Assembly (NCBI GenBank): GCA_001792535.1
Contig: MGGS01000002.1
Span: 7,155 to 71,154, forward strand
Source of the DNA: Candidatus Woesebacteria bacterium RIFCSPHIGHO2_02_FULL_42_20
Lineage (GTDB): Bacteria; Patescibacteriota; Microgenomatia; UBA8517
Length of the DNA: 64,000 bases
Direction: 5' to 3'
Under the pieces are notes generated by a model that made no database searches, was not told where the DNA came from, and saw only the letters and a program-made list of their open reading frames with translations. Positions 28,795 through 53,316 of this stretch are shown here, piece after piece. Position 1 is the stretch's first letter; each line of letters starts with the position of its first letter. The position numbers and the translations under genes were made by a program.

Positions 28795-28971
28795 ATTTAC
28801 TCCAAAAAATTATCCCTCATCGTTTCGGCTTGTGGAAATATACACGTGGGAATATTTCCAACAGCTAAATGACCTTATTGCAAAAGGTTTGAAAAGCCAA
28901 AACGTATGAAGGAGTCCCAACCATGTTAATTACTGGAATATGCTATACCCGGCGGTAACTTTTGTCAATGA

Positions 28972-29079
28972 CCCGTTGTATTTTCCGTTACTCGGGAATT
29001 GTTTGAATCAAATGTCCCCGAAAGACTTTCCCGGGAACAGAAGAATCTTCTTGAGGAATTTAAAGGAGTGGGGTTATAA
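28972..29079 (+). pseudogene. remnant of a dnaJ 3' end (diverged partial duplicate of nt ~12040-12119)
   Basis: translates [35 protein letters not shown] vs DnaJ C-terminus [28 protein letters not shown]; ~80% nucleotide identity over ~70 bp including the GGGTTATAAT stop-proximal tract. Confidence 0.5.
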
Positions 29080-29086
29080 TAGCAAT

Positions 29087-30055
29087 ATGCCGGATTATGA
29101 ACCGGGTGCACAACAGATAGAAGTTGACCTTTCGGGCAAAAGCGAATTTGCTCGTCTGTTGCATGAGAAAGCAAACACCCCCCCCGAAACTCCGTTGAAT
29201 GAAATTGCCGCCAATGGATATGAAGTTTGGTATTCTTTACTTGAGAGCACTAGAGCTTCGCCTCGTGATTTACGGGACTTTTTGGTTTGGAATGTGGACT
29301 GGTTGCAGAGAGAATCTGATGATGGAGCAAAAAATCTTGTGGAAGTGCAGCTTAAGGCGATAGCCGGACTTGACGGCGATGACACGTATGTTACTGATGT
29401 TGTATCCATGCTGGATAGCTCAGTTAGAACTAATGAAAGAGCAGCGGCATATGATCAGGAAATGATAGATGCGCAGGATGCCTCACTTTTGAAAAGATTG
29501 GCAAATAAACTTGGCATTTCGACAGAAAAGGATCGCTTGATGCAGGTTAAAGGAAAAAACTCAAAGAGGGCAGTGGGTCATAAAGTTTTATTGAGGCAAT
29601 ATTTGGATGACGAACTAACTAAAAGAATTGTTACTCATCAGCCTGGTTACGACGAGGTTGCCCGGCCGTGGAATGAGCTACCCAGAGCTGAACCAGTAGT
29701 TCAACCCACCGATGTTGTGGATATTCAAGTGCTAATGCTTAGCGGACCTGATAAAAGACTGGGCCATCTTGAATTTTATCTCGAGAAAGCAGCTGAAGCT
29801 TTTTCACAACTGGGTATTGATGTGGATGAGGTGCCTTATCAAGTAGCCTTGCTTGACCTTAGAGTCTCTGGTGGCAAAAAGGGGTTCGCAAGACAGTTTG
29901 TCGAGGCTCAAGTCGGGGAGAGAATAAACGGTTCATTGCGAGCAAAAGATCAAAAGGGTCGTGAAAGTCAATATAATCAAGCTTCAAACTGGCAGCAGTT
30001 TGCAGATCTGCTTCCTCCAGCTCCAACAAGCGACTTCGGCACTGCGTTTAGTTGA
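29087..30055 (+). CDS. hypothetical protein
   Basis: ~322 aa from ATG 29087 (MPDYEPGAQQ); the track ORF from 28940 includes the dnaJ-remnant region in another frame; GC visibly higher than flanks. Confidence 0.5.
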   Translation: MPDYEPGAQQIEVDLSGKSEFARLLHEKANTPPETPLNEIAANGYEVWYSLLESTRASPRDLRDFLVWNVDWLQRESDDGAKNLVEVQLKAIAGLDGDDTYVTDVVSMLDSSVRTNERAAAYDQEMIDAQDASLLKRLANKLGISTEKDRLMQVKGKNSKRAVGHKVLLRQYLDDELTKRIVTHQPGYDEVARPWNELPRAEPVVQPTDVVDIQVLMLSGPDKRLGHLEFYLEKAAEAFSQLGIDVDEVPYQVALLDLRVSGGKKGFARQFVEAQVGERINGSLRAKDQKGRESQYNQASNWQQFADLLPPAPTSDFGTAFS

Positions 30056-30316
30056 TTAAAACTTGTATATTCCGCCTCTGTAGCCAACTTTTCGGATCCA
30101 AATTTCATTTTTAGTTTTGTCGGCTTCAAATAATGCTCTAATTCTGCCCGATCTCAATCTGAAGAAGCTATTTACGCCGGAAATTGGCTTTATATCCAAA
30201 TTATTTGGGAAAGGGTAAGTCAGTTTAGAAACTTTTTGGAGTGTGTTTTTAACGTCTTTTTTTGCAATTTTTTCTAAATCTTTTTCTGCTTTTGAAGTAA
30301 AGAAGACGCTATACAT
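30056..30316 (-). CDS. RelE/ParE-family toxin
   Basis: 86 aa; FRLRSGRIRALFEADKTKNEIWIRKVGYR matches RelE/ParE C-terminal core; overlaps upstream antitoxin by 8 nt. Confidence 0.75.
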   Translation of the reverse strand: MYSVFFTSKAEKDLEKIAKKDVKNTLQKVSKLTYPFPNNLDIKPISGVNSFFRLRSGRIRALFEADKTKNEIWIRKVGYRGGIYKF

Positions 30317-30575
30317 ACTTTTTGAGTATCTTCTCTAGTGGAATTCCCTTTCCTCTTTTCACTTTAAACAACTTTTCTGCCTCACTCTGATCTCTACGGT
30401 CCTCGAGCAGCTCCTGTAGGAGTATAAACTCGTTGAGATTAAGAATAACAGCTTTTGGTTTAGATCTGTGGAAAATATAAGCCAAGCCTTCATTTTCGAC
30501 CTGCTTTAAGAGTCCAAGCGCGTTCTCGCGCATATCGGTTATAGTTTTGACATTCTTTAATGTTGGTATTAACAT
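30309..30575 (-). CDS. Phd/YefM-family antitoxin
   Basis: 88 aa; TITDMRENALGLLKQVENEGLAYIFHRSKPKAVIL. Confidence 0.75.
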   Translation of the reverse strand: MLIPTLKNVKTITDMRENALGLLKQVENEGLAYIFHRSKPKAVILNLNEFILLQELLEDRRDQSEAEKLFKVKRGKGIPLEKILKKYV

Positions 30576-30712: not shown

Positions 30713-31744
30713 ATGGTAGCGCAGACGGCCAGAACAGAATTTGCACAAGCTCTCAAAGCAGTTGCTACGGAGCGGGGGCTTGATGTGGACGTTATTCTCG
30801 ACACTATCAAGCAGGCAATTATAGCAGCGTATAAAAGAGACGCCCGTGACCGCGGTGAGGAGGTTGAAGAACTTGTTTATGAAGTGGAACTTGATCCGGT
30901 TTCCGGCGAAGCCAAAATTTTTTCGTTTGAAGAAGGCAAGGAAAAGAAGAAAAAAGACATTACCCCTCCCGGTTTTGGCCGAATAGCTGCCCAGACTGCG
31001 AAACAGGTTATTCACCAAAAAATTCGCGAGGCGGAAAAGGACGCTGTCTTAGGGGAATTTTCCGATAGGATGGGGTCACTCGTGTCGGGTATGATACTTC
31101 GCTTTGACGGGCCAAATGTGCGGATCGACTTGGGTAGAACAGAAGCTTTAATGCCCGCCGAGGAGAGGATCCCTAATGAGCGGCTTTCATTGAGCCAAAG
31201 GCTTACATTCCTTCTGAAAAATATTGTCGAAGGCCCGAGAGGAAAAGACGTGATATTGTCTCGATCCGACCCTGAGTTTGTTAAACGGCTTTTTAGCCGT
31301 GAGGTCCCGGAACTTTCAAATGGAAGCATTGAAGTGAAAGAGATTGTTAGAGAGGCTGGGGTGAGGACAAAAATTGCCGTTGTGTCGAGTCAGTCGGGAG
31401 TAGATCCGGTGGGTTCGTGTGTCGGCCAAAAAGGTGTCCGCGTGCAGGCCGTAACAAATGAGCTGGGAGGAGAAAGGGTAGATATCATTCCTTGGACTGA
31501 CAACATAAAAGACTTGATTAAATCGGCGCTGGCTCCCGCCGAGATAGATTCAATTACGATTACAAAAACGACAGCTACCGCAAAAGTGACTGTCCCCGAA
31601 GACCAGTTGTCAATTGCTATCGGTAAAGACGGTCAAAATGTGCGTCTTGCAAGTAAGCTTGTCGGGGTTAAAATCGATGTTGTATCCTCTGGTAAAAGTT
31701 CAGATAAGCTTGACCAAGGGAAAAAAGAAGTAAAGAAGTCCTAG
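30713..31744 (+). CDS. nusA: transcription termination/antitermination factor NusA
   Basis: 343 aa; N-terminal domain, S1 (GSLVSGMILRF), two KH domains. Confidence 0.92.
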   Translation: MVAQTARTEFAQALKAVATERGLDVDVILDTIKQAIIAAYKRDARDRGEEVEELVYEVELDPVSGEAKIFSFEEGKEKKKKDITPPGFGRIAAQTAKQVIHQKIREAEKDAVLGEFSDRMGSLVSGMILRFDGPNVRIDLGRTEALMPAEERIPNERLSLSQRLTFLLKNIVEGPRGKDVILSRSDPEFVKRLFSREVPELSNGSIEVKEIVREAGVRTKIAVVSSQSGVDPVGSCVGQKGVRVQAVTNELGGERVDIIPWTDNIKDLIKSALAPAEIDSITITKTTATAKVTVPEDQLSIAIGKDGQNVRLASKLVGVKIDVVSSGKSSDKLDQGKKEVKKS

Positions 31745-31779: not shown

Positions 31780-33153
31780 ATGAAGAAACCAAGGCCGCCA
31801 GTTGTGACTGTTCTGGGCCATGTGGATCACGGCAAGACAACCCTTCTTGATTATATCAGGAAATCTTCTGTGGCTAAAAAGGAGGCAGGTGGGATTACCC
31901 AGACCATCGGTGCTTCGGTAATTAAAACGGATGGTAAGGAAATTACTTTTATAGACACGCCCGGTCACGCAGCATTTTCGCAGATGAGAGCCCGAGGGGC
32001 GCGTCTTGCCGATCTTGTTGTCCTTGTCGTTGCTGCCGACGACGGAGTTAAGCCTCAAACTATAGAAGCCCTGAAATACATGATGGAGGTAAATTCACCA
32101 TTTGTAGTGGCTTTTACAAAGGTAGACTTGCCGTCGGCAGACGTGGAGAAGGCCAAAGGCGAACTTGAAAAACTTGGAGTGCTTTTTGAAGGTCGCGGTG
32201 GAAACACTCCTTTTGTGGCAGTTTCGGCGAAAGCGGGAACCGGTGTGGGGGACCTTTTGGAAACAATTGTCCTCATGGCGCAGGTTATAGGGATCTCCGG
32301 GGATCTAGATGCTAATCTGGAAGCTTTTGTTATCGAAACACAAAGAGGTAAGTCGGGAGTGCTGGTTTCGGTAATTGTTAAAAATGGGAAGGTAAAAGTA
32401 GCGGATACTGTTTACTGTGGTACGCTTGCAGCCAAAGTGCGGGGCTTGTTTGATTTTCAAGGTAAAAGTATCAAAGAAAGCTTTCCCGGCTACCCCTGCC
32501 AGATATTAGGTTTTTCTGCTCTTGCGGGTGTGGGAAGCAAGATTAGTGATCAGCCAAGCTTTGTTGTAGAGCAAAAGATTGCTGTTGATGAATACGGTGG
32601 GGGAGGTTTACCGGTTGTACTCAAGGCAAGTAACAGCGGCTCACTGGAGGCTGTTTCAGCCAGTATACCCGAAGGCGTGAATATTGTGGCTAAAAGTGTT
32701 GGCAATGTGACTCAAAGTGATGTTTTTCTTGCCAAAAATTCGAATGCGAACATTTATGCTTTTGAATCGAAAGCAAATTCGGACGTAAAAAGGCTGTCCG
32801 AGACAGAAGGGGTTAAAATTTTTGAATTCAAGATCATCTATGAGCTTTTTGATGCACTGACCAAAATTATCGAAGAAGGGGTCGAGAAGATTTTGGGTAA
32901 AGCACAGGTTTTGGCGAGTTTCCCGTATGAAAAAAGGAAAGTCGCTGGTTGCAAGATGATTGAGGGCATGATAAATAGGTCGAGTAAATTAAAACTCGTT
33001 CGGGGGGAAGACTCTGTCGGCAGCGTGAAACCAATTTCCCTTAAGAAAGGCAAATCGGACGTGAATGAAGTTAGGCAGGGTGAGGAATTTGGGATAATTT
33101 TTGAGCCACAACTTGAATTTAAAAGTGGCGATGTGTTACTATCGGTGCAATAA
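31780..33153 (+). CDS. infB: translation initiation factor IF-2 (compact form: G domain + C-terminal domains)
   Basis: 457 aa; G1 GHVDHGKTTLLD, DTPGH, NKVD-equivalent TKVD; lacks long N-terminal region. Confidence 0.92.
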   Translation: MKKPRPPVVTVLGHVDHGKTTLLDYIRKSSVAKKEAGGITQTIGASVIKTDGKEITFIDTPGHAAFSQMRARGARLADLVVLVVAADDGVKPQTIEALKYMMEVNSPFVVAFTKVDLPSADVEKAKGELEKLGVLFEGRGGNTPFVAVSAKAGTGVGDLLETIVLMAQVIGISGDLDANLEAFVIETQRGKSGVLVSVIVKNGKVKVADTVYCGTLAAKVRGLFDFQGKSIKESFPGYPCQILGFSALAGVGSKISDQPSFVVEQKIAVDEYGGGGLPVVLKASNSGSLEAVSASIPEGVNIVAKSVGNVTQSDVFLAKNSNANIYAFESKANSDVKRLSETEGVKIFEFKIIYELFDALTKIIEEGVEKILGKAQVLASFPYEKRKVAGCKMIEGMINRSSKLKLVRGEDSVGSVKPISLKKGKSDVNEVRQGEEFGIIFEPQLEFKSGDVLLSVQ

Positions 33154-33155
33154 CT

Positions 33156-34010
33156 ATGGGTGACCAGCTTAAACCTATAATTGATGACAGCAGATCTATT
33201 TTGTTGCTACTGCCGGTAAATCCCACATTTGATCAGGTGGCCGGAGGGCTCGGGATGTACCTTTCGCTGAAGGGTTCAAAGGAAGTAAGTATTGCCTGCG
33301 AGTCGCCAATGACAGTTGAACACAACCGTCTGGTGGGAGTCAATAAGATATCGTCCGAAATTGGCGACAAAAACTTGGTAATCAGATTCAAAAATTATCA
33401 TGCAAATAATATAGAGCGGGTTAGTTATGATATTGAAAACGGTGAATTTCGTTTGACAGTGATCCCGAAGCCTAAAAACGCCGCGCCCATGCGGGAGCAC
33501 GTGCATTTGAATTACTCCGGAGTAGCTGCATCGACTATGCTTTTGGTTGGTGGCAGCCACGAAGATCAATTTCCGATGCTTAAAGCTTCTGAAGTAACAG
33601 GATTGAAAAAAGTTCACATAGGTGTGCGAAGCATTAGTCTGACTGGGAGCCAAAATATACTGTCTTTGGCGAGGGTTGCCTCAAGTGTTTCGGAACTCAT
33701 TGCTCGCTTACTTCGAGAGTCGGGCTTTAGCATCGACGCCGATGTCGCGACAAACTTGCTTATGGGAATTGAAGAGGAGACCAGAAACTTTACCACTCCC
33801 GAGGTTAGCGCGGAGACATTTGAAGTTGTTTCCGTGTTAATGAGATCGGGTGGCGCGAGGAAACCTAAAAATCTTCCGGATGCGAGATTCTTCCCACCGG
33901 GTGCAATTCCGGGCGAAAAACTTCACCCGGTTGAAGAAGTGGAAAAAAATGAGATCCCCAAAGCTTGGATGGAAAAACCGCCGGTTTATAAAGGTACAAG
34001 TATTAGTTGA
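33156..34010 (+). CDS. DHH-family phosphoesterase-like protein (NrnA-like position downstream of infB; DHH motif degenerate)
   Basis: 284 aa; N-terminal ILLLLPVNPTFDQVAGGLGMYLSL resembles DHH motif I/II region; no intact DHH triad. Confidence 0.4.
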   Translation: MGDQLKPIIDDSRSILLLLPVNPTFDQVAGGLGMYLSLKGSKEVSIACESPMTVEHNRLVGVNKISSEIGDKNLVIRFKNYHANNIERVSYDIENGEFRLTVIPKPKNAAPMREHVHLNYSGVAASTMLLVGGSHEDQFPMLKASEVTGLKKVHIGVRSISLTGSQNILSLARVASSVSELIARLLRESGFSIDADVATNLLMGIEEETRNFTTPEVSAETFEVVSVLMRSGGARKPKNLPDARFFPPGAIPGEKLHPVEEVEKNEIPKAWMEKPPVYKGTSIS

Positions 34011-34028: not shown

Positions 34029-34361
34029 TTATAAAAGAGCCGATAATTTTCTTGGGTCTTTCAAATTGTCACAGTAACTTTCATAACGCTTTCTTGTTTC
34101 GTCGCTTTTTTCAATAATCTTGCTAGCCATGTCAGCAACCTTGTCTCTTCTTTGTTTTAAAGCATGTATTTCTTGAACATTGAAAACTTTATATTCGGTT
34201 TTATTTGAGACTTGATCCAGTAAGAAATTGAAAGAGCGCTCTGCAGTACGAAGTTGGGCAACGAATTTTGGGTCTGTCGAACCCTCGGCCCTGCTTACCA
34301 ACTCTTCGAGAAGAGATATGTAACTTTCTAAAAATTTGCGATGGGTTTCTAACTTGTCCAT
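34029..34361 (-). CDS. hypothetical helical protein
   Basis: 110 aa, predicted all-alpha, charged; in frame with and 4 codons downstream of the NTPase gene stop. Confidence 0.45.
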   Translation of the reverse strand: MDKLETHRKFLESYISLLEELVSRAEGSTDPKFVAQLRTAERSFNFLLDQVSNKTEYKVFNVQEIHALKQRRDKVADMASKIIEKSDETRKRYESYCDNLKDPRKLSALL

Positions 34362-34373
34362 GTATCAATATTA

Positions 34374-35504
34374 TTATACTACATTTACTCTTTGCTTTAT
34401 TTCCTTGCCTGGCAATCGTGATACCAGTATTGCTTGACCCTTTTTCAACTTTGGAAGCTGTTTTGCCAATCCTTTGTAATTGAAATATCCTTCAAGGAAA
34501 TCAGCATCATAGTCATTGGTCTTAAAAAGGATCAATGCTGCAGTATTGCCCAGAATAGCATCAATTTCATCTCTGTTGATCTGCTGGAGGTATTCAAGAG
34601 TTGGAATAATTGTAATCTTTAATGGTCTGGATTCCATCATCAAGGAAGAGAAAGTTCTTGATGATATGTTCTGAAGCCCGTTTATGTATATGACATAGTT
34701 TTTGCCGGGTTGCCTGGTTCGCAGTGTTAGAAGAACAGCCAGCATAAACAAGTTTCCTAAAATAATTGATACCTCTTCATCGGTTTTTTGTTTCGAAAAA
34801 TCCAAAATCAGAGACCTCCCTTTTTTGAAAGTGTCTCGAACTGATTTTTTATAAGGATATGTCAATAATTTTTTGATATATGGGCTGTCGACTTTTTTGA
34901 ACATCTTTTCCTCCACGTAGTTTAGGTAGTCAATATGGAACTCCCCGCCAGTTCTTTCCTGCAGTAGTTTCTCAAGCGCTTCCTTATAATGTTTTAATTT
35001 AGGACTGTCTAGGTATTTTCTGACTTCCTTACCACCATTATCCAAGTCATAAAGTAGCCAAAAGGCTTTATAAAGATCAAACTTGCCCACCTCCACCAAT
35101 GTGCGCGTTATCACGTCAATGCCTTTTTCGCACTTCGGACCAACCAACCCTTTCTTCTCCGGATCCAGCAGTTTGTTGACCAACTCAATAATCCCCAAAA
35201 CCAGATCGTATACATTGCCTTCCAAGACGTTTTTATCTAAGTAAAATGAAACACTTTTTTCTAAATCTTCTGCGTAATACTTGTCGTAATTGGAGAGTTT
35301 CATTGAATGCTCTGTTTTTTCGGAAAGGTTTCCGTCAAAGTCAAAGAGTATAAAAGGCTCTTTGACTTTAATGTTGGAGTTTATTAATTTACCCAGAAGA
35401 TTTGATTTACCCGTTCCCGAAATTCCAAGGAGAAGTACATTTCTTTCCTGGACATTTCTAATTTGATCAAGGTACTTGCTCACCTTAGTTGTTTTATAAC
35501 GCAA
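34374..35504 (-). CDS. P-loop NTPase of unknown family
   Basis: 376 aa; Walker A LLLGISGTGKSNLLGKL at residues ~23-38; candidate Walker B SLILDFSK; TTG start. Confidence 0.6.
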   Translation of the reverse strand: MRYKTTKVSKYLDQIRNVQERNVLLLGISGTGKSNLLGKLINSNIKVKEPFILFDFDGNLSEKTEHSMKLSNYDKYYAEDLEKSVSFYLDKNVLEGNVYDLVLGIIELVNKLLDPEKKGLVGPKCEKGIDVITRTLVEVGKFDLYKAFWLLYDLDNGGKEVRKYLDSPKLKHYKEALEKLLQERTGGEFHIDYLNYVEEKMFKKVDSPYIKKLLTYPYKKSVRDTFKKGRSLILDFSKQKTDEEVSIILGNLFMLAVLLTLRTRQPGKNYVIYINGLQNISSRTFSSLMMESRPLKITIIPTLEYLQQINRDEIDAILGNTAALILFKTNDYDADFLEGYFNYKGLAKQLPKLKKGQAILVSRLPGKEIKQRVNVV

Positions 35505-35538
35505 CCAGTGAAATAATTCAATGAGGAGGTGAAAGTCG

Positions 35539-35802
35539 ATGGAAGGAGGAGACGCAGGCGTTAAGGAAGGTTTGGGAGAGGGTCAAGAAACTGGTAGTGA
35601 AGCTCAAGCGACGGCCGATGCTGGAGCGAGATTGAGAAATGCCACGGATTTTGACCCTAGTCATGCACCAGCGCAGCCAGTTAAACCGGATCTCGATGCC
35701 ACTATTAGAGCTGGCAGAACACCTGCTGAAACTAGCAGGCTACAACAACTTTCTCAAACTCTTAAAAGTTTGGTTCAGGGAAATAGGAGTCAGAATTTAT
35801 AA
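35539..35802 (+). CDS. small low-complexity acidic protein, divergent from the NTPase gene
   Basis: 87 aa; strong SD GAGGAGGTG 8 nt before ATG; GC-rich relative to window. Confidence 0.4.
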   Translation: MEGGDAGVKEGLGEGQETGSEAQATADAGARLRNATDFDPSHAPAQPVKPDLDATIRAGRTPAETSRLQQLSQTLKSLVQGNRSQNL

Positions 35803-36266
35803 ACAACTCGCATTTGGTGGGCTGGAGCGTCTTCGGCTTGTGAACCGACAATATTTCTTAAGCCCTTCCTAGCCGGATTCGGCCCGGGTTCTCGGTCGCT
35901 GTTTTCAGCTTCAATTGTCCCGTGATTTTGTAGTGCAAGCGTGGTTATTTCACCCGAAGCTTCCGTAATCAGATTAGAATCATCTCCATGAAGCCGCGTT
36001 TCCCTGCGTGCTATTCCCGCCATCTTATCTCTTAGAACACCTTTAAGTATTTCTTCGCTTGCCCTTGCACCGGCAATGTCACCTTCTTTGAATTCGTCTT
36101 CTTGGATATCTAGGTGTAATTGGTAGTCATCAGGGTCGATAACTAGTATGTCAACTCCTTGCTCTTGCCACTTTGGTTTGATTGCGAACACGGCATTTTC
36201 AAAGGTTTCTGCATTTTGTTCACCTTCGACATGAGGCAGGCTGAATTCTCCCGAGACTAGATTCAT
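35790..36266 (-). CDS. hypothetical acidic protein
   Basis: 158 aa; start overlaps upstream gene stop (ATGA-type coupling). Confidence 0.5.
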   Translation of the reverse strand: MNLVSGEFSLPHVEGEQNAETFENAVFAIKPKWQEQGVDILVIDPDDYQLHLDIQEDEFKEGDIAGARASEEILKGVLRDKMAGIARRETRLHGDDSNLITEASGEITTLALQNHGTIEAENSDREPGPNPARKGLRNIVGSQAEDAPAHQMRVVYKF

Positions 36267-37075
36267 TTCAATGTGGATTTTAAATTATTGAGTCCTTGAA
36301 TTCTGCCGTCAAGAGTCGCCACTTTTTGCAAAATTACACCCCTTTCTGTTTTTGCCAGATCAGATTTTGCATGGAGAAGATCCATATTAATTTGTTGCAA
36401 TTGAAGCGGGTCAGTAGTAACTTGTCTGGAGCCTTGAAGTGTTCTAATGTCAGATTTAAGTTTTTGATATTCATCGTCTCCGGGTAATTGACCTATCGGC
36501 TTTAACTTGGCTTTGGTACCCGCGAGACTTTGACCTTCTTCGGCAATATCTCTATCAATCTCTTGCCTTACTTGTGCAGCATTTCCCATATTATAATTTG
36601 CTATCAAATTAGTAATTCGCGTGAGTTCATTTGGATTCGTATCCATTTCTGAAATAGCGGCGAGACGTTTTCCTTCAAGATAACTAGCGGCAGTAGAAAT
36701 GTCACCTATGCGTTTAAGTTCTGCTGGTGCAGACCGAGTAACGCCCGGCGTTGCTGCTTGTTTGATTTCAACTGTTACCCTATTTCCTTGTTCATCATAG
36801 TAATACCCTTGCCCTTTTCTTTCATTGTCTTGGAAAGGAACAACACTTATTTGTTTACCGTCAATGTTCATTGTTACTTTTTCGGAAGGAGGCTGGGCTG
36901 TTGGCGAATGCAAAACACCTGTTTCAGGTATTGAGCTTGGAGCGTTTACTACCCTTATTTGACCGCCTCCGGCCTCGACAGTTGTCGGTTGAGGTGGGGT
37001 TTGTGTAGGATCCCAGTCCTGACCAGTGTCTAGCGGCATACTTGTCACTAAAAGTATAGCTGTTTTGTATTTCAA
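36263..37075 (-). CDS. secreted/lipoprotein-like coiled-coil protein
   Basis: 270 aa; N-terminal signal peptide MKYKTAILLVTSMPLD; Pro/Thr/Gln-rich segment then long predicted coiled coil. Confidence 0.5.
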   Translation of the reverse strand: MKYKTAILLVTSMPLDTGQDWDPTQTPPQPTTVEAGGGQIRVVNAPSSIPETGVLHSPTAQPPSEKVTMNIDGKQISVVPFQDNERKGQGYYYDEQGNRVTVEIKQAATPGVTRSAPAELKRIGDISTAASYLEGKRLAAISEMDTNPNELTRITNLIANYNMGNAAQVRQEIDRDIAEEGQSLAGTKAKLKPIGQLPGDDEYQKLKSDIRTLQGSRQVTTDPLQLQQINMDLLHAKSDLAKTERGVILQKVATLDGRIQGLNNLKSTLK

Positions 37076-37158
37076 AGTAAAGTGTGTTATTATTCCTAAC
37101 TAAGTACTACTAGGTTTACTGACTGTCCGGCTGTTTACTTGGTAGAAACACTTTAAAC

Positions 37159-37425
37159 ATGGCATTATCGAAGGACGAAAAGCTTGATATAATCAAAAAG
37201 TTCGCTATTGAAAAAGGCGACACCGGTTCTCCTGAGGTTCAGGTGGCGCTACTGTCCGCTTCGATAGACAAACTAGCGAAGCATTTGAAAGATCACTCAA
37301 AAGATGTACACTCTAGGAGAGGATTGTTGTCGATGGTTGCCAAAAGAAGGAGGCTTCTAAACTACCTTCTAAAAAAAGACGAAGCTCGCTACAAAGAGCT
37401 TACACGGAAGCTTAGCTTAAAATAA
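37159..37425 (+). CDS. rpsO: 30S ribosomal protein S15
   Basis: 88 aa; [38 protein letters not shown]. Confidence 0.95.
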
Positions 37426-37434
37426 AAGTTAGTA

Positions 37435-39738
37435 ATGAAAGAATTTAAAGAAAGTATTATTGTAGGAGGTAAAACTCTGACCATTTCAAGCGGTAAGTTT
37501 GCGGCCCAAGCAAATGGATCGGTAATGGTAACACTAGGAGACACCGTGGTTTTTGCTGCGGCAACCTCGTCAAGTTTTGACACCGATCGTGATTACTTTC
37601 CCTTAACGGTTGACTATATGGAGCGCCTTTATGCCGGTGGACGGATTAAAGGGAGCCGCTGGGTAAAGCGCGAAGGTAGGCCGACGGACGAGGAGATATT
37701 AACCTGCCGGCTTATCGACCGCTCGATTAGGCCCTTATTTCCCGAATCTTACAAAAAGGAAGTCCAAGTGATTGCGATGGTTTTGTCGGTTGATTTGGTC
37801 AATAGACCGGACATTGTAGGTTGCATCGCAGCCTCAAGCGCTATCTGTATTTCAGACATTCCATTCAAAGAGCCTGTGGTGACGGTCAGCATCGGTAGTA
37901 AAAACGGTAAGTTAATTGTATATCCCTCGGTCGATGAAGTTGCAACCGGGGATCTAGACCTGACGGTCAGTGTAACCAAAGACTCTGTTGTTATGATCGA
38001 GGCCGGGGCAAAGGAAGTCAGCGAAGCCACAATCGTTGAAGCGATTGATCTGGCCCAAAAAGAGGGTAAGAAAGTAATCAAGCTTGTCGCTAAGTTTGCC
38101 CGGAAGGTGGGAATCAAAAAGCAAACCTTTGTAGATGAAAATTTGGACGCCGGGACCAAAAAGAGAATCGAAAAATTGGCGGGTGACAAGCTTGATTCCT
38201 TGATTGTTGCTATGGCCACTACAGAGGGCAGCTACGGAGATTACAACGAACTCAAGTCGGCGGTTGCAGGAGAATTCGAAGACGAAGTAAAAGGTAGAGT
38301 GGCAGCTGGATTTGACTATTTATTTAAAGAAAAGGTGCGTAAAATGATCCTTTCAGGCAAGCGGCCCGATGGTCGAAAACACGAGGCGATTAGGGATTTG
38401 TCCGCTGAAGTTGGGATTTTGCCAAGGACCCACGGGTCAGGGCTTTTTGCCCGCGGCCAGACTCAGGTGCTAAGCGTTACGACTCTTGGCTCGCACACTT
38501 TTGAACAGTTACTCGAAAGCGCCGAAGGAGACGAGTCCAAGCGGTATATGCACCATTATTCTATGCCTCCGTATTCGACAGGTGAAGTCGGGAGAATTGG
38601 GTCGCCGAATAGGCGCGAAATAGGTCACGGGGCGTTGGCCGAGAGAGCTTTGATGCCGGTAATTCCCAGTGAGGAAGTTTTTCCTTACACAATCCGGGTG
38701 GTTTCCGAAGTTATGAGTTCCAACGGCTCGACTTCGATGGCATCTGTCTGCGGCTCGACACTGTCGCTTATGGATGCCGGTGTTCCATTGACTAATCCGG
38801 TAGCAGGGATTGCTATGGGTTTGGTGGTGGACAATGACCCGACTGCGCTTGCAGGCAAAAAGTACGCTGTTTTGACCGACATTGCGGGGTTAGAAGACGG
38901 CAATGGCGATATGGACTTTAAAGTTGCCGGTACCAAAAAAGGAATAACGGCTTTGCAACTTGACGTCAAGACATTGAAACTGACCAGGTCGATACTTGAA
39001 GCGGCGTTAAAGCAAGCCAAAGAGGCTCGTGAAGAAATCATGTCCGTAATTGTCAAAACACTAAGTACCCCTCGTGAGCGAGTCTCGCAGTATGCCCCGA
39101 AGATTAGAACTACAAAAATCGATCCGTTCAAAATTGGTGAGTTGATTGGCCCGGGAGGAAAGACGATTAAAGGAATAATAGCTAAAACAGGTGCCGATGT
39201 TGATGTTGAAGACGACGGGACGGTTTACGTAAGTGCGATTGACGAGGCAGCAGTAAGTGCCGCGATTGATGAAATTACTAAACTTACAAAGGAAATTTTA
39301 CCGAACGAGATCTACGAAGGCGAAGTGAAAAGGGTGGAAAACTACGGTGCCTTTGTCGAAATTCTACCTAAAAAGGAGGGATTGGTACATGTTTCCGATA
39401 TGTCTCAGGAGTTTGTCAAGGATGTTTCAAGCCTGGTCAAATTAGGAGACAAAGTGAAAGTTCGGGTAAAAGAAATAGACAGCCTTGGAAGGTTAAACCT
39501 TTCAATGGTAATGGACCCGGCTTTTGACAAGCAGAAGGAGGAAAGAGACAGGGAGCGTAACCGTGGCGGTAGAGATTTCGGCCGTGACAGGCGGGATCAA
39601 GGCCGTGGCCGCGGCAGCATCAGCAGATTTGGCGGTAGAAGAAGAGACAGTAATTTCAGGGACCGAGGTGGCTTTGGCGGTCCTCATTTTCCTGCGAGCA
39701 GTTTGATGGACCAGTCATCAAAGGATTTCCGCGAATAA
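37435..39738 (+). CDS. pnp: polynucleotide phosphorylase with Arg/Gly-rich C-terminal tail
   Basis: 767 aa; two RNase PH domains, KH, S1; C-terminal ~70 aa RGG/RD-repeat low-complexity extension. Confidence 0.95.
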   Translation: MKEFKESIIVGGKTLTISSGKFAAQANGSVMVTLGDTVVFAAATSSSFDTDRDYFPLTVDYMERLYAGGRIKGSRWVKREGRPTDEEILTCRLIDRSIRPLFPESYKKEVQVIAMVLSVDLVNRPDIVGCIAASSAICISDIPFKEPVVTVSIGSKNGKLIVYPSVDEVATGDLDLTVSVTKDSVVMIEAGAKEVSEATIVEAIDLAQKEGKKVIKLVAKFARKVGIKKQTFVDENLDAGTKKRIEKLAGDKLDSLIVAMATTEGSYGDYNELKSAVAGEFEDEVKGRVAAGFDYLFKEKVRKMILSGKRPDGRKHEAIRDLSAEVGILPRTHGSGLFARGQTQVLSVTTLGSHTFEQLLESAEGDESKRYMHHYSMPPYSTGEVGRIGSPNRREIGHGALAERALMPVIPSEEVFPYTIRVVSEVMSSNGSTSMASVCGSTLSLMDAGVPLTNPVAGIAMGLVVDNDPTALAGKKYAVLTDIAGLEDGNGDMDFKVAGTKKGITALQLDVKTLKLTRSILEAALKQAKEAREEIMSVIVKTLSTPRERVSQYAPKIRTTKIDPFKIGELIGPGGKTIKGIIAKTGADVDVEDDGTVYVSAIDEAAVSAAIDEITKLTKEILPNEIYEGEVKRVENYGAFVEILPKKEGLVHVSDMSQEFVKDVSSLVKLGDKVKVRVKEIDSLGRLNLSMVMDPAFDKQKEERDRERNRGGRDFGRDRRDQGRGRGSISRFGGRRRDSNFRDRGGFGGPHFPASSLMDQSSKDFRE

Positions 39739-43661: not shown

Positions 43662-43940
43662 ATGAAAATAGTAACGATATCTTCAAAAAGACAAATGACT
43701 ATTCCAAGGAGCTATTTGGAAGTGCTGGGTCTGGAGTCTTATGGAAAGGCAATTTTGGAAAAAGAAAAGGACAAAGTGGTAATTAGGCCCATGAAAGGGT
43801 CGGTAGTAGATCAGGTTGCCGGGAGCCTTCGAGGATACGTTAGACCATCTTTACTGGGTAAAAGCGTAGAAGAAATAAACAAGGAGGCTGGGGAGGCTTA
43901 TACAAAATACCTGGCGAAAAAATTTAAGCTTATCAAATGA
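43662..43940 (+). CDS. AbrB/MazE (SpoVT-AbrB) family antitoxin
   Basis: 92 aa; MKIVTISSKRQMTIPRSYLEVLGLE swapped-hairpin signature. Confidence 0.75.
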   Translation: MKIVTISSKRQMTIPRSYLEVLGLESYGKAILEKEKDKVVIRPMKGSVVDQVAGSLRGYVRPSLLGKSVEEINKEAGEAYTKYLAKKFKLIK

Positions 43941-44323
43941 TAACTTGCGTATTTGATACAAATGTACTGCTTCGTCTTTTTCTGAGAGACATTGAAAGTC
44001 AGTTTTTAGAAACGACTAGAGTATTAAAAGAGATTGAAGATGAAAAATCTACAGGAAAACTTTCAGCATTGGTTGTTGCAGAAACAATTTGGACATTTGA
44101 AAGTGTTTATAAATTAAACAGAAAGATAGTTATTGAGAAACTCCTTAGTTTAGTTGCATTAAAAAATATTAAGATCATTGAAGTAAAAAAAGACGTTCTT
44201 GTGGAAATCCTAAAAAGAATGATTGGAAACAAATTAGATTTTGTGGATGTTTATCTTTCCAAGATTGCCACCAAAAAAGAGATTTTTTCTTTTGACCGTG
44301 ACTTCAAAAAACTGTACAGATAA
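43937..44323 (+). CDS. vapC: PIN-domain toxin VapC
   Basis: 128 aa; N-terminal CVFDTNVLL; ATGA overlap with antitoxin gene. Confidence 0.8.
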   Translation: MITCVFDTNVLLRLFLRDIESQFLETTRVLKEIEDEKSTGKLSALVVAETIWTFESVYKLNRKIVIEKLLSLVALKNIKIIEVKKDVLVEILKRMIGNKLDFVDVYLSKIATKKEIFSFDRDFKKLYR

Positions 44324-47935: not shown

Positions 47936-48307
47936 TTATTTGTACTTGGAATGAGTTTTTAGAAGCTTCTTGTCAAAGCTTTTAAGCTGAGATTTTGAGT
48001 TAAGGACCTCGGCTAGTAATAACGAGTCGTAAAAACTTACCCTTTCATTTTTATAAATATTGAGAGACAAAGGCACGAAAGATGAAGTTGAAACGTTGGG
48101 CTGCTTTATCAAGGAAATTAAAACATTACACAACTCTTTTTTGTTTGCCTTGTAGTGTGTCTCAAGAATATAAACTACTTCAGCCAGTACAATATTGGCA
48201 ATATAAATTTTGTCATTTTCAATAATTTTCTTTGCGGTTTCTGCTTGGACTTTTATATCTTTGGTTAGAAAGCGGACGAGGTAGTTTGTGTCCAGGTATG
48301 TAGCCAT
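47936..48307 (-). CDS. PIN-domain toxin (VapC-like)
   Basis: 123 aa; MATYLDTNYLVRFL N-terminal acidic-residue strand; C-terminal SFYDSLLLAEV. Confidence 0.75.
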   Translation of the reverse strand: MATYLDTNYLVRFLTKDIKVQAETAKKIIENDKIYIANIVLAEVVYILETHYKANKKELCNVLISLIKQPNVSTSSFVPLSLNIYKNERVSFYDSLLLAEVLNSKSQLKSFDKKLLKTHSKYK

Positions 48308-50506: not shown

Positions 50507-52642
50507 ATGAGTTTGATTAAATTTGGCTTAAAAGAAGCCGACAAAGAGCATTACTGGACCTTAATAATTGAAGAAGGCTGGGTCCAGAGTGCCATTTGGA
50601 AAATTGACGAAAAAGACGAGGAGGCACAGGTTGTTTCATTTAGCTCTCCTGTTCGCTTCGAAAGCGATGATGACTTGGTTGAAACCGTTGATACTTCTCT
50701 TTCGGCTACAATTCAAAGCTTACCCAAGGAATTCCCTGAGCCGTCAAAAACTGTTTTTGGGGTACCTTCCTCATGGGTGAACAATGGTCAAATAGTGCCG
50801 GAGCACTTGGAGAAAATAAGGCACATCTGCTCAAAGCTTTCCTTAGCACCTACCGGATTCGTCGTACTGTCTGAAGCTATTGCGTTTTTAACTAAGACAC
50901 AAGAAGGTTCTCCGCTAAGTGCCGTGGTAATTGGCCTGACAGCTACAAGCCTTGAACTAAGCATTTTTAAGCTTGGCAAGTTGATTGGCAATACCAAGGT
51001 GGCTCGAAGTGTATCTTTATTTGACGACGCGGTTGAAGGTGTTTCGCGCTTTACTGACGGGATGCCTTTGCCTTCGCGGTTTTTAGTTTATGACGGTAAA
51101 GAGGGCGAAATGGATGAGGCCAAAGAAGCGCTTATTTCTGCTGACTGGTCAGCTAATACTTCTGATAAGGTTAAATTTATTCACTCTCCCAAAGTTGAAA
51201 CAGTGAGTGTTAATGATAAGATTCTGGCAGTTTCGTTGGCTGGTTCTTCTGAGATCGGAAAAGTGAAAAGTGTCATAATGACGGGCATAAAAAGCGAAGA
51301 TGCGGAGGAAAAGGTTGAAGTAACCGATGTGGTAAGTAATATCCGTGAAAACGAAATTACAGCAGGCGACTTGGGATTTGTAAATGATGAAGATGTTGTT
51401 ATCGAGGAAAAAATTCCCGTCTCTGAAACCAAAGTCCATAAAGTAACACCGAAATTTAAAAATCCGTTCGCTTTTCCGAAGTTTAAGGTGAGCTCGGGCG
51501 GATCGTCCGGTAAAAAAATGCTAATCGTCGGGTTTTTACTGTTTTCTGTGATTATTATAGGTCTTACTTTGGCTTGGTGGTTTTTACCTAAGGCAACAGT
51601 CACCATTTTTGTCTCCCCCAAAACCTTGCAGGAAAAAGACACCATCTCAATAGATATAAATGCAACGGGGGCCAATCTGGAGGCGAAAGTTATTCCCGGC
51701 AGAATAGAAAAAGTCAAGGTAGATGGTAGTAAAACAAAGTCGGTAACAGGTACCAAAGTTGTTGGTGATAAAGCTAAAGGAACCGTCAAAGTCAGAAACG
51801 GCACGCCGACCGACGTCAGTTTTGCCGCCGGTACCGTTATGGAAGGGCCGAATGGGTTAAAGTTCGGCCTAGATGAGTCGGTGTCGGTTTCAAGCGCAAT
51901 TTCGCCGACTTTACCGGGGACAGAAAATGTTTCGGTTACTGCCGAAGCCATTGGTTCGGAATATAACTTGGCTAAGGACGAAACGTTTAAAATGAGTAAT
52001 TATCCGAAAAGTGAGATTGACGCGGTTGGTGAGGCCGATTTTTCTGGAGGTAGTAGCCGTGAAATTTCGGCTGTTTCGCAAGATGATGTTGAGCAGCTTG
52101 AGAAGAGTTTAACGGATGAACTTGAAGATCAGGCCGAAGAAAAAATGATGGCTACGCTTGCTGCGGACGAAAGTTTTATCGAAGGCACTGTGACTTCGAG
52201 TGTTGCCGAGAGGGAGTTTGATCATAAAGTCGGGGACGAGGCTGCAAGTGTCGAACTGTCTTTGTCATTGGAAGTAAGCGCTTTAGTCGTGGACAGCATC
52301 GACTTAGATGGCCTTGCATCAAAGCTTTTGGAAGACCAGACCCCTCAAGGATTTTTGTTCAGAAATGAACAAGTGGATAAGACTTTTAAATTAGAAGGTC
52401 AGAGCAATGGTGTTTATAAGGTTACGATTAGCTTTGTGGCCAATCTTTTGCCCAATCTTAAAGTAGACGAAATTGCGAGTAAAATTTCGGGTAAGTATAC
52501 GGACGTGGCAAGCAATTATTTGCAAACGATACCAGGATTTAAAAAAGCCCAAATCAGTATTAACCCGAGGTTCCCTGGTAAGCTTGGTACTTTACCAAAT
52601 GTAAAAAATAATATATCAATAGAGATCTCTGCGAGTAAGTAA
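50507..52642 (+). CDS. membrane protein: N-terminal actin-like (PilM/FtsA-like) cytoplasmic domain, one TM, ~370-aa extracellular domain
   Basis: 711 aa; TVFGVPSSWVNNGQIVPEHLEKIRHICSKLSLAPTGFVVLSEAIAFL resembles actin/Hsp70-fold connect motif; TM MLIVGFLLFSVIIIGLTLAWWF at ~aa 335. Confidence 0.45.
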   Translation: MSLIKFGLKEADKEHYWTLIIEEGWVQSAIWKIDEKDEEAQVVSFSSPVRFESDDDLVETVDTSLSATIQSLPKEFPEPSKTVFGVPSSWVNNGQIVPEHLEKIRHICSKLSLAPTGFVVLSEAIAFLTKTQEGSPLSAVVIGLTATSLELSIFKLGKLIGNTKVARSVSLFDDAVEGVSRFTDGMPLPSRFLVYDGKEGEMDEAKEALISADWSANTSDKVKFIHSPKVETVSVNDKILAVSLAGSSEIGKVKSVIMTGIKSEDAEEKVEVTDVVSNIRENEITAGDLGFVNDEDVVIEEKIPVSETKVHKVTPKFKNPFAFPKFKVSSGGSSGKKMLIVGFLLFSVIIIGLTLAWWFLPKATVTIFVSPKTLQEKDTISIDINATGANLEAKVIPGRIEKVKVDGSKTKSVTGTKVVGDKAKGTVKVRNGTPTDVSFAAGTVMEGPNGLKFGLDESVSVSSAISPTLPGTENVSVTAEAIGSEYNLAKDETFKMSNYPKSEIDAVGEADFSGGSSREISAVSQDDVEQLEKSLTDELEDQAEEKMMATLAADESFIEGTVTSSVAEREFDHKVGDEAASVELSLSLEVSALVVDSIDLDGLASKLLEDQTPQGFLFRNEQVDKTFKLEGQSNGVYKVTISFVANLLPNLKVDEIASKISGKYTDVASNYLQTIPGFKKAQISINPRFPGKLGTLPNVKNNISIEISASK

Positions 52643-52644
52643 AT

Positions 52645-53316
52645 ATGCGAAGAACTCTGTCAAAAATTGCATCGGTTATTTTGGGTTTGGTGGGGATTTT
52701 TATGCTTGCCTCTACTCTCTTTCCGATTTTTTCGTACGAAATCTCAACACGCGATACCTTTTCCAATTATTTGTCTCCTGTTCCCGAAGGCGATATGGTA
52801 ATATTTGAAGCGTCGGGGGATGATCTGACTTTGGCGAGCAACTGGTTTGAAGGTGGGGCTGCGAGAGAAGATTTTGCCAATGTCGGTAACATTGACTATT
52901 ATACACTTTCTATCCCAAAGTTTGGAATTGAAAACGCGACTGTGTCCGTCGGCGGGGAAGACTTAGCCGAAAGCTTAATCCAGTATCCGGGTACTGCTCT
53001 TCCCGGGAAAATGGGGAATACTGTAATTTTTGGCCACTCGATTCTGCCTCAATTTTTTAACCCCAAAAGCTATCTATCAATTTTCTCCAGGCTGCCCGAG
53101 CTTAAAAAAAATGACGAGATAGAGGTTTATTATGATGGCATAGCTTATCTTTATAGAGTTGTAGATTTGGTGGAAGTAGATCCGGATAATTTAAATGTGT
53201 TGGAACAGCGATGGGGAGATGCATTTTTGAGTCTTGTCACTTGTGTCCCCCCGGGAGACCCCAGAAAACCCAGAAGACTAGTTGTTAGGGCAAAAGTAGT
53301 TCCTCCAGAAAAATGA
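52645..53316 (+). CDS. sortase (transpeptidase)
   Basis: 223 aa; N-terminal TM anchor; TLSIPKFGI, VIFGHS (catalytic His), SLVTCVPPG (TLxTC catalytic Cys), RLVVRA (conserved Arg). Confidence 0.75.
   Translation: MRRTLSKIASVILGLVGIFMLASTLFPIFSYEISTRDTFSNYLSPVPEGDMVIFEASGDDLTLASNWFEGGAAREDFANVGNIDYYTLSIPKFGIENATVSVGGEDLAESLIQYPGTALPGKMGNTVIFGHSILPQFFNPKSYLSIFSRLPELKKNDEIEVYYDGIAYLYRVVDLVEVDPDNLNVLEQRWGDAFLSLVTCVPPGDPRKPRRLVVRAKVVPPEK

Follow-up and report, generated by a model that had tools for sequence, protein, structure and literature searches.

Type IV coupling proteins, among them TrwB of R388, VirD4, DotL and Cag-beta, resemble the P-loop NTPase described here through profile matches and an intact Walker A motif. 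Patescibacteria encode 5,713 VirD4-type homologues, just 148 of which lie close to virB4, and exaptation has been raised for the orphan proteins of this type (PMC12102498). The VirB4 C-terminal domain, the C-domain of DptH (DndH) and the HerA-type ATPases (Nezha SIR2-HerA, DUF4297-HerA, TdpA) come with extra N-terminal domains or partner effectors, and in MADS the mad8-like ATPase is encoded in an operon with a methyltransferase, a specificity subunit, a kinase and others. The MADS hotspot of Pseudomonas (bioRxiv 10.1101/2023.03.30.534895) shares with the present locus a fixed core-gene junction and lineage-varying cargo that includes toxin-antitoxin pairs.

The locus lies in a 64-kb stretch of DNA from a Woesebacteria genome (the window), where an islet of lineage-restricted genes is inserted between housekeeping genes that are normally adjacent. 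The opposite-strand island of ~3.1 kb described in the original prediction, with four minus-strand ORFs and one plus-strand ORF between a DHH-like gene and rpsO, was recovered with the following layout.

33156-34010, plus strand: DHH-like (NrnA-like) gene, 284 aa, the left flank, following infB.
34029-34361, minus strand: h110, a core island gene encoding a 110-aa basic orphan with no credible family match.
34374-35483, minus strand: NTPase, the cargo cassette, 369 aa from a GTG; a solitary soluble TrwB/VirD4-like (FtsK-HerA superfamily) P-loop protein.
35484-35538, plus strand: conserved upstream region of p87, which aligns in three lineages and contains the Shine-Dalgarno sequence.
35539-35802, plus strand: p87, a core island gene encoding an 87-aa low-complexity acidic orphan.
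35790-36266, minus strand: a158, encoding a 158-aa acidic orphan, part of the hypervariable segment.
36263-37039, minus strand: cc270, probably 258 aa from Met13; the ORF is open to a TTG at 37075.
37040-37158, no strand assigned: divergent intergenic region from cc270 to rpsO.
37159-37425, plus strand: rpsO, the right flank, followed by pnp.

Synteny comparison with relatives showed that the insertion is genuine and lineage-specific, within an otherwise contiguous nusA-infB-DHH-rpsO-pnp array. The DHH-like gene follows infB in 80 of the 80 related loci kept from the scan. The claim that the flanking genes are normally contiguous was borne out, the gap from the DHH-like gene to rpsO being below 190 nt in 41 of the 65 related loci that have both genes. 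Unrelated cargo of 0.4 to 2.3 kb was found at the same junction in approximately 18 of the 65 (VapBC-like [PIN/antitoxin] pairs, a zinc-ribbon protein and orphan genes), which indicates that the junction is a recurrent hotspot. None of the hotspot orphans in these other lineages is related to an island protein. The combination of h110, p87, a158 and cc270 occurs only in the lineage of the window and in two sister lineages, one comprising L008, L018 and L019 and the other L098 to L102. The possibility that relatives carry the same genes in the same place, which had been named as evidence against an insertion, therefore held for the two closest lineages and failed for the wider clade.

For the left flank, NCBIfam gave weak matches over residues 173 to 232, where only a DHHA1-like region was weakly detectable, and a Pfam search returned no match. 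On the right, a block ~80% identical to L008 begins at ~37060 and extends into rpsO. Rfam and tRNA scans of the 64-kb window found nothing.

The content of the island differs between the three lineages. Searches with tblastn found h110, p87, a158 and cc270 in L008 and no NTPase, which is likewise absent from L098. In both, unrelated genes encoding 251 and 114 aa stand in its place, with an extra 227-aa gene in L098. No remnants of these three genes were found in the window, and the cassette breakpoints coincide with gene borders. The 251-aa gene of L008 was considered as a decayed or inverted NTPase and rejected, given that the two have no similarity in either direction. The island copies available for the species of the window are all 100% identical.

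With moderate confidence, we interpret the region as a lineage-restricted accessory islet of two layers at a recurrent hotspot, with the NTPase as a stand-alone domain of the TrwB/VirD4 type. The first layer would be the four orphans h110, p87, a158 and cc270, common to three close lineages and under purifying selection. The second would be slots between these core genes that take differing cassettes, namely the NTPase here and the 251- and 114-aa genes, in one case with the 227-aa gene, in the sisters.

The five ORFs are genuine genes, with support from dN/dS for the four core genes. Values against the two sister lineages range from 0.11 to 0.36, which shows that selection acts on these four genes across the three lineages. 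The h110 protein is 73% identical to its L008 orthologue (dN/dS of 0.11 to 0.13) and p87 71% identical (0.16 to 0.23), with p87 differences distributed as 14/16/31 over the codon positions (chi-square p = 0.014). The Shine-Dalgarno sequence reported for p87, GAGGAGGTG, is present at 35523-35531, 7 nt ahead of the ATG. The GC content of p87, said to be clearly above the window mean, is 0.481, the same as that of nusA and pnp and not exceptional. Searches of h110, p87, a158 and cc270 against Pfam, NCBIfam, PHROGs, PADLOC and PDB sequences returned nothing credible.

The start of a158 overlaps the stop of cc270 by 4 nt, and the a158 protein is acidic, as described (pI of 4.66). The signal peptide ascribed to the 270-aa ORF was not recovered, its maximum 19-residue hydropathy being just 0.45. 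The start is also misplaced: the alignment with the sister orthologue begins at Met13 (MPLDTGQDWDPT), and GenBank lists the protein with 258 aa for the same species. The apparent signal peptide arose from an over-long TTG start call. A hydrophobic N-terminal segment was sought in all island proteins and found in none. The cc270 protein has a Pro-rich N terminus, contains a conserved GYYY segment and resembles a coiled coil in its C-terminal half; its match to the DC-SIGNR neck among PDB sequences was set aside as a coiled-coil artefact. When cc270 and a158 were searched in 5.8 billion proteins, only their own lineage was returned.

This pair is also the most variable part of the island. With 41 to 43% identity to its orthologues, cc270 is the fastest-evolving island gene, and it reaches a dN of 0.25 between strains whose DHH-like gene has a dN of 0.009. 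Between L008 and L098, the flanks are 93 to 100% identical and the a158-cc270 segment 59 to 84%. At four-fold degenerate sites, the window and L008 have an identity of 0.56 within the island against 0.34 for the flanks (Fisher p = 1.6e-6), in a comparison of small genes with 143 four-fold sites where the silent divergence of neighboring rpsO is low too. Pointing to lateral exchange, the silent-site divergence of the island does not follow that of the core genome. Both this pattern and the hypervariability of a158-cc270 between near-identical strains are new here. The history of a158-cc270 appears decoupled from that of the core genome, which implies that divergent alleles are swapped by recombination among related lineages. 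The hypervariability suggests an antagonistic or self/non-self interaction within the cell, and in cc270-a158 this unculturable organism offers a concrete candidate for an antagonistically selected interaction.

A further proposal, which we offer tentatively and hold to be improbable, is that the four conserved orphans, especially the translationally coupled cc270-a158, constitute an undescribed cytoplasmic, Woesebacteria-specific polymorphic system under diversifying or frequency-dependent selection, with laterally exchanged alleles and with cargo slots that capture mobile-element genes. New immunity, addiction or host-interaction modules are examples of what such a system could be, and in it the Walker-B-degenerate NTPase might be a nucleotide-gated sensor and not a motor.

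The NTPase had been given as 376 aa with no recognisable family. Homology with the sister lineage stops exactly at an internal GTG, which leads to a protein of 369 aa that matches the annotation; the ORF itself continues open to a TTG at 35504. Walker A is where it had been placed (GISGTGKS, residues 27 to 34). The protein passes the Pfam DUF87 cut-off (27.5 bits versus 23.2), with a match to this HerA central domain that spans only residues 5 to 61, and its precomputed annotation is PF01935. The AlphaFold2 model obtained from a 26-sequence alignment (pLDDT of 82.6; a 3-sequence alignment gave an unusable model, with pLDDT of 43) revealed a RecA-like nucleotide-binding domain with an inserted all-alpha domain. 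This model, which served for the remote-homology check proposed for the NTPase, matches TrwB, VirB4, DptH and HerA, and a profile of the NTPase family matches TrwB at 1.6e-12 and DotL at 3e-9. Searching PDB sequences with phmmer gave only noise, such as FliS, and a profile search was needed. The match to TrwB_AAD_bind (14.9 bits) is under the Pfam cut-off of 20.5, that to NCBIfam conju_CD1115 (17.7) is below the cut-off of 250, and Pfam T4SS-DNA_transf was sought without a match. The NTPase is not an ordinary housekeeping kinase, an outcome that had been named as a refutation; its fold is that of conjugation and defence ATPases.

Walker B is degenerate (VIYING), with N275-G276 (376-aa numbering) in place of the D-E that is at least 90% conserved in the 25 homologues of the 26-sequence alignment. 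An N-terminal transmembrane anchor was not found, Walker A already starting at residue 27, and the only strongly hydrophobic stretch (19-residue mean of 1.90 at approximately residue 245) belongs to a helix inside the ATPase core. The HMMER scan returned 1278 matches, only one of them non-self and below 1e-30: P0005, with 31% identity, the sole closer homologue among 1.84 billion cluster representatives. The others are TrwB_AAD_bind, T4SS-DNA_transf or TraG-D_C proteins. The neighbors of P0005 are unrelated to the island genes and none is h110-like, and distant soluble relatives adjoin relaxase, primase and methylase genes, or Rad52, PDDEXK and transposase genes.

These features are consistent with a cytoplasmic domain that stands alone and is of the TrwB/VirD4 coupling-protein type; more distant soluble relatives lie in mobile elements. 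Nucleotide binding may be retained via the intact Walker A, perhaps with TrwB-like oligomerisation, and hydrolysis would be poor or absent: because N-G replaces D-E in the alignment, the NTPase is probably hydrolysis-impaired. As a pseudo-ATPase, it might be an exapted or decaying remnant of a mobile-element coupling protein that acts alone and not as the motor of a machine formed by its neighbors. Speaking against simple decay, all 369 codons of the ORF are intact although the genome is AT-rich. The 12 nt between the NTPase stop and the h110 start, on the same strand, are operon-like and could reflect a recently formed functional pairing. A conserved NTPase-h110 pair was rejected, an unrelated 111-aa gene lying downstream of the homologue in L017.

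The five genes had been proposed to form a single secretion, conjugation or defence module. This proposal found no support: the two sister lineages have the other four genes but no NTPase, the closest homologue of the NTPase is flanked by unrelated genes, and signal peptides are absent from all island proteins. The 64-kb window contains no VirB4, relaxase, pilin or effector domain. The island is best read as a patchwork of swappable orphans and a lone coupling-ATPase relative, not as a secretion or defence machine, although the four core genes may conceivably share a function.

An integrated mobile element or prophage in an eroded state, its genes persisting by inertia without a current cellular role, would account for the orphan content, for the low GC3 of cc270 and p87, for an ATPase of mobile-element type whose catalytic motif is damaged and for a silent-site pattern suggestive of lateral movement. 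We nevertheless regard this origin as unlikely, since the dN/dS values in three lineages place the four core genes under selection. As originally noted, Pfam, NCBIfam and PHROGs revealed no integrase domain and the flanking repeats are only short, chance ones; att-like repeats and tRNA genes are lacking too. Relatives of cc270, a158 and h110 are absent from 2.9 million viral contigs, and none of the four core genes has a credible PHROG match. The composition check that had been suggested gave an unremarkable tetranucleotide deviation (z of ~1.3), so that compositional evidence for foreign origin is weak.

It is similarly doubtful that the island, or at least the NTPase with h110, is a novel defence module against phages or mobile elements, in which a HerA/DptH-like ATPase senses or translocates foreign DNA and the small partner is the effector. 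PADLOC matched mad8 to the full length of the NTPase (1.4e-12) and, weakly, HEC-01B to h110 (0.0017); relatives hold toxin-antitoxin pairs at the same junction, and cassette turnover next to hypervariable genes is typical of defence hotspots. However, the mad8 match is probably at the superfamily level and not specific to mad8, because HHpred alignments against PDB sequences underlie the mad profiles. The island has no other MADS component and lacks nuclease, Sir2, TIR and methylase domains, and the alternative cassettes and other hotspot orphans have no PADLOC match. Moreover, h110 is kept without the NTPase in the sister lineages, P0005 has no h110-like neighbor, and Walker B is degenerate.

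A secretion or conjugation-like module, with the NTPase as a coupling protein that supplies a type IV apparatus with substrates such as the coiled-coil protein, is already largely refuted where the whole island is concerned and very improbable overall, for although the best match by structure and by profile is TrwB and chromosomal T4SS are widely encoded in Patescibacteria (PMC12102498), the NTPase lacks a membrane anchor, has a degenerate Walker B and scores under the Pfam TrwB_AAD_bind cut-off, the island proteins have neither signal peptide nor predicted membrane segment, the 64-kb window has no VirB4, VirB6, pilin or relaxase, and the sister lineages keep the supposed substrates yet lack the NTPase.

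The islet is a small, clean example of how compact genomes of the candidate phyla radiation retain defined hotspots with gene turnover, in which orphan genes, toxin-antitoxin pairs and mobile-element fragments take part. In contrast with the Pseudomonas MADS hotspot (bioRxiv 10.1101/2023.03.30.534895), the cargo here is tiny (0.4 to 3.4 kb) and mostly orphan, with no recognised defence system and no integrase found. The island also has its mad8 match alone, and neither the extra N-terminal domains nor the partner effectors (Sir2, DUF4297, NurA, DndFG) of the VirB4, DptH and HerA-type defence ATPases.

Compared with type IV coupling proteins, the NTPase is only 12 to 14% identical, is devoid of the N-terminal transmembrane anchor, has N-G instead of D-E in Walker B, falls under the coupling-protein cut-offs of Pfam and NCBIfam, and has no relaxase or VirB4 nearby in the 64-kb window. 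Like the orphan VirD4-type homologues of Patescibacteria (PMC12102498), it is chromosomal, away from virB4 and without relaxase in a CPR genome, but it is far more divergent, is confined to one species and carries a degenerate Walker B. Current views are not overturned by these findings; being anchorless and degenerate in Walker B, the NTPase is an extreme case among the orphan VirD4-type proteins of Patescibacteria and bears on the question of their exaptation.

The window is a chromosomal stretch from an uncultured Woesebacteria (candidate phyla radiation, OP11) of the Rifle aquifer. The same locus is also present in GCA_001792415.1 and in many metagenome assemblies, and its NTPase is identical to ACD_52C00026G0006. 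An ORF scan recovered the gene order and strands of the original prediction:

30713-31744, plus strand, nusA
31780-33153, plus strand, infB
33156-34010, plus strand, DHH-like gene, 284 aa
34029-34361, minus strand, h110, orphan gene
34374-35504, minus strand, NTPase ORF
35539-35802, plus strand, p87, orphan gene
35790-36266, minus strand, a158, orphan gene
36263-37075, minus strand, cc270 ORF, orphan gene
37159-37425, plus strand, rpsO
37435-39738, plus strand, pnp

The observation of an unusual island at this position was largely right. The Shine-Dalgarno GAGGAGGTG lies 7 nt 5' of p87, a158 is acidic (pI 4.66), the NTPase carries the Walker A motif GISGTGKS at residues 27-34, and neither integrase genes nor non-trivial flanking repeats occur at the island; the window scan also found no tRNAs or Rfam matches. 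Some details changed. The cc270 protein, predicted to be secreted, has no signal peptide: its highest 19-residue hydropathy is 0.45, the orthologue alignment begins at Met13 (MPLDTGQDWDPT...), and GenBank annotates 258 aa in the same species, which together show that the "signal peptide" was the product of an upstream TTG start call. The NTPase has 369 aa and not 376, with sister-lineage homology stopping exactly at an internal GTG (35483). The GC content of p87, thought to be raised, is 0.481, the same as that of nusA and pnp. GC3 is low by about two standard deviations in cc270 and p87, and the island shows no remarkable tetranucleotide deviation (z ~1.3).

Several neighbouring features were also recorded. 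IF2 has just 457 aa, comprising the G domain and C-terminal domains without a long N-terminal region. For the DHH-like gene, no Pfam model reached its threshold, and only a weak DHHA1-type resemblance was seen, at residues 173-232; its product looks like a degenerate, possibly noncatalytic, NrnA-like protein, yet all 80 related loci retained from the scan described below have this gene after infB. The greA-nusA interval (28940-30575) holds a 371-aa orphan gene, a ParE-like toxin (30056-30316) and an 88-aa putative antitoxin. Since the 10 kb upstream of nusA contain neither greA nor the 371-aa orphan in the sister species or any related locus, this interval may be a second variable spot. Two more PIN-domain toxin genes within 12 kb (43937-44323 and 47936-48307) show how common genes of toxin-antitoxin type are in this small part of the genome. 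Farther downstream, a 711-aa protein (50507-52642) with a weak Baseplate_J-like match (6.8e-5) is directly followed by a sortase gene (52645-53316).

A genome-collection scan with IF2 identified the sister species Woesebacteria RIFCSPHIGHO2_01_FULL_39_23 (L008; IF2 68% identical), and querying metagenomes with the DHH-like protein gave 80 related loci (41-81% identity), 65 of which have both the DHH-like gene and rpsO and underlie the junction counts. The gap between these two genes is <190 nt in 41 of the 65, within the array nusA-infB-DHH-rpsO-pnp-lonAAA, and h110, p87, a158 and cc270 are confined to the window species, the L008/L018/L019 lineage and the L098-L102 lineage. This confirms that the island was inserted into a conserved array. 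About 18 of the 65 loci carry junction inserts of 0.4-2.3 kb with content unrelated to the window island, which is the largest occupant. VapBC-like PIN/antitoxin pairs occupy four of these loci and a 66-aa protein three; the cargo also includes a zinc-ribbon protein, a PsbP_2-like membrane protein and various orphans that matched nothing in Pfam or PADLOC. These unrelated inserts, together with the restriction of the core genes to three lineages, identify the DHH-like/rpsO junction as a recurrent hotspot. In more distant relatives (IF2 42% identical), rpsO was not found within 10 kb. The VapBC-like pairs of L048, L057, L066 and L067 are homologous (130-aa PIN toxin, ~80-90-aa antitoxin) and sit directly upstream of rpsO; the L066 and L067 copies are identical.

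The four core orphans are real genes. Pairwise dN/dS among the three lineages is 0.11-0.13 for h110, 0.16-0.23 for p87, 0.11-0.23 for a158 and 0.22-0.36 for cc270, compared with 0.05-0.07 for the DHH-like flank, and p87 differences fall 14/16/31 across codon positions (p = 0.014). None has a credible family or PDB-sequence match, scans of viral contigs for cc270, a158 and h110 found no relatives, and profile searches of 5.8 billion proteins retrieved cc270 and a158 only from this narrow lineage.

L008 keeps orthologues of all four in the same places (h110, 73%; p87, 71%; a158, 68%; cc270, 41% identical) and lacks the NTPase. The h110-p87 interval is instead occupied by an unrelated gene, and another gene follows p87; L098, 88% identical to L008 in nucleotides, has an extra gene between cc270 and rpsO:

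L098 317-1000, 227-aa cassette gene
L008 12717-13472, plus strand, 251-aa cassette gene
L008 13835-14179, 114-aa cassette gene

These three are orphans by Pfam and PADLOC and left no remnants in the window. Between L008 and L098, dN/dS of the 251- and 114-aa genes is 0.24-0.29. The window/L008 breakpoints coincide exactly with the NTPase start and fall within a few bases of the h110 start codon, and 55 nt upstream of p87 are kept in all three lineages. The only closer NTPase homologue (P0005, 31% identical) lies on a different contig among neighbors that share nothing with the island. The idea that the five genes form one coherent module is thus unsupported.

The NTPase is a very divergent, new member of the coupling-protein-like group. 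It passes Pfam DUF87 at residues 5-61 only, with TrwB_AAD_bind and FtsK below threshold. PADLOC mad8 matches at 1.4e-12, probably at the superfamily level rather than specifically, because HHpred alignments against PDB sequences were used to build the mad profiles. HMMER, run exhaustively on 1.84 billion cluster representatives, gave 1278 matches, with a single non-self match <1e-30; the remainder (22-26% identical) have TrwB_AAD_bind, T4SS-DNA_transf or TraG-D_C, in soluble ~420-aa proteins or in the C-terminal part of proteins of 700-1500 aa. For TrwB, the family profile gave 1.6e-12, the AlphaFold2 model (26-sequence alignment) has a pLDDT of 82.6 and a pTM of 0.85, and the protein has no membrane anchor. 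In the alignment, Walker B, near-invariant as hhhhDE, has become VIYING in the NTPase (N275, G276), EARKY is changed to ESRPL, and HQY to LEY; its motifs suggest a protein that binds nucleotide with impaired hydrolysis. In the distant soluble coupling-protein-like homologues P0041 and P0088 (one from a Bathyarchaeia archaeon), the Walker A lysine is gone (GTGVST and GVGVAT), and catalytic degeneration thus recurs in this group. Two distant soluble relatives lie in contexts of mobile-element type, one with a relaxase, primase, methylase and second TraG-like gene, the other with Rad52, PDDEXK, DUF932 and a transposase, which points to a probable mobile-element origin. For Patescibacteria, 5,713 VirD4-type homologues have been reported, only 148 of them near virB4, and exaptation has been raised for them (PMC12102498).

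We consider it fairly probable that a lineage-restricted accessory islet occupies a hotspot here, in which four selected orphans are joined by exchangeable cassettes, one being a solitary soluble coupling-protein-like NTPase. A new defence pair and an inert mobile-element remnant are both unlikely, to a similar degree: each is weakened chiefly because sister islands lack the NTPase, because effectors, membrane segments, signal peptides and T4SS genes are missing, and because the core genes are under purifying selection. The same points make the predicted secretion or conjugation module highly improbable, and no VirB4, relaxase or pilin genes were found in the 64-kb window.

Within the island, sequence divergence is uneven. 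L008 and L098 share 92-100% identity in the flanks and the 251/p87/114 block, whereas the a158-cc270 segment falls to 59-84%, with dS of 0.67-1.0 versus 0.10-0.18. From the window to L008 the relation is reversed: silent sites of the flanking core genes are saturated (four-fold-site identity 296/859 = 0.34), whereas divergence is lower in the four island genes (80/143 = 0.56; Fisher p = 1.6e-6), with rpsO, island-adjacent and also low in silent divergence, excluded from both groups. For rpsO (window 37159-37425, L008 15684-15950), the protein is 96% identical and pS is 0.48, unlike its saturated neighbors pnp and lonAAA; this could reflect codon bias or co-transfer with the island. Alleles of roughly constant depth (dS ~1) thus occur across cores ranging from nearly identical to saturated, so that island history is decoupled from that of the core genome, which is new here. 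The most interesting lead is the hypervariable cc270-a158 pair. The constant allele depth indicates lateral exchange and long-lived polymorphism, a pattern typical for loci under antagonistic selection.
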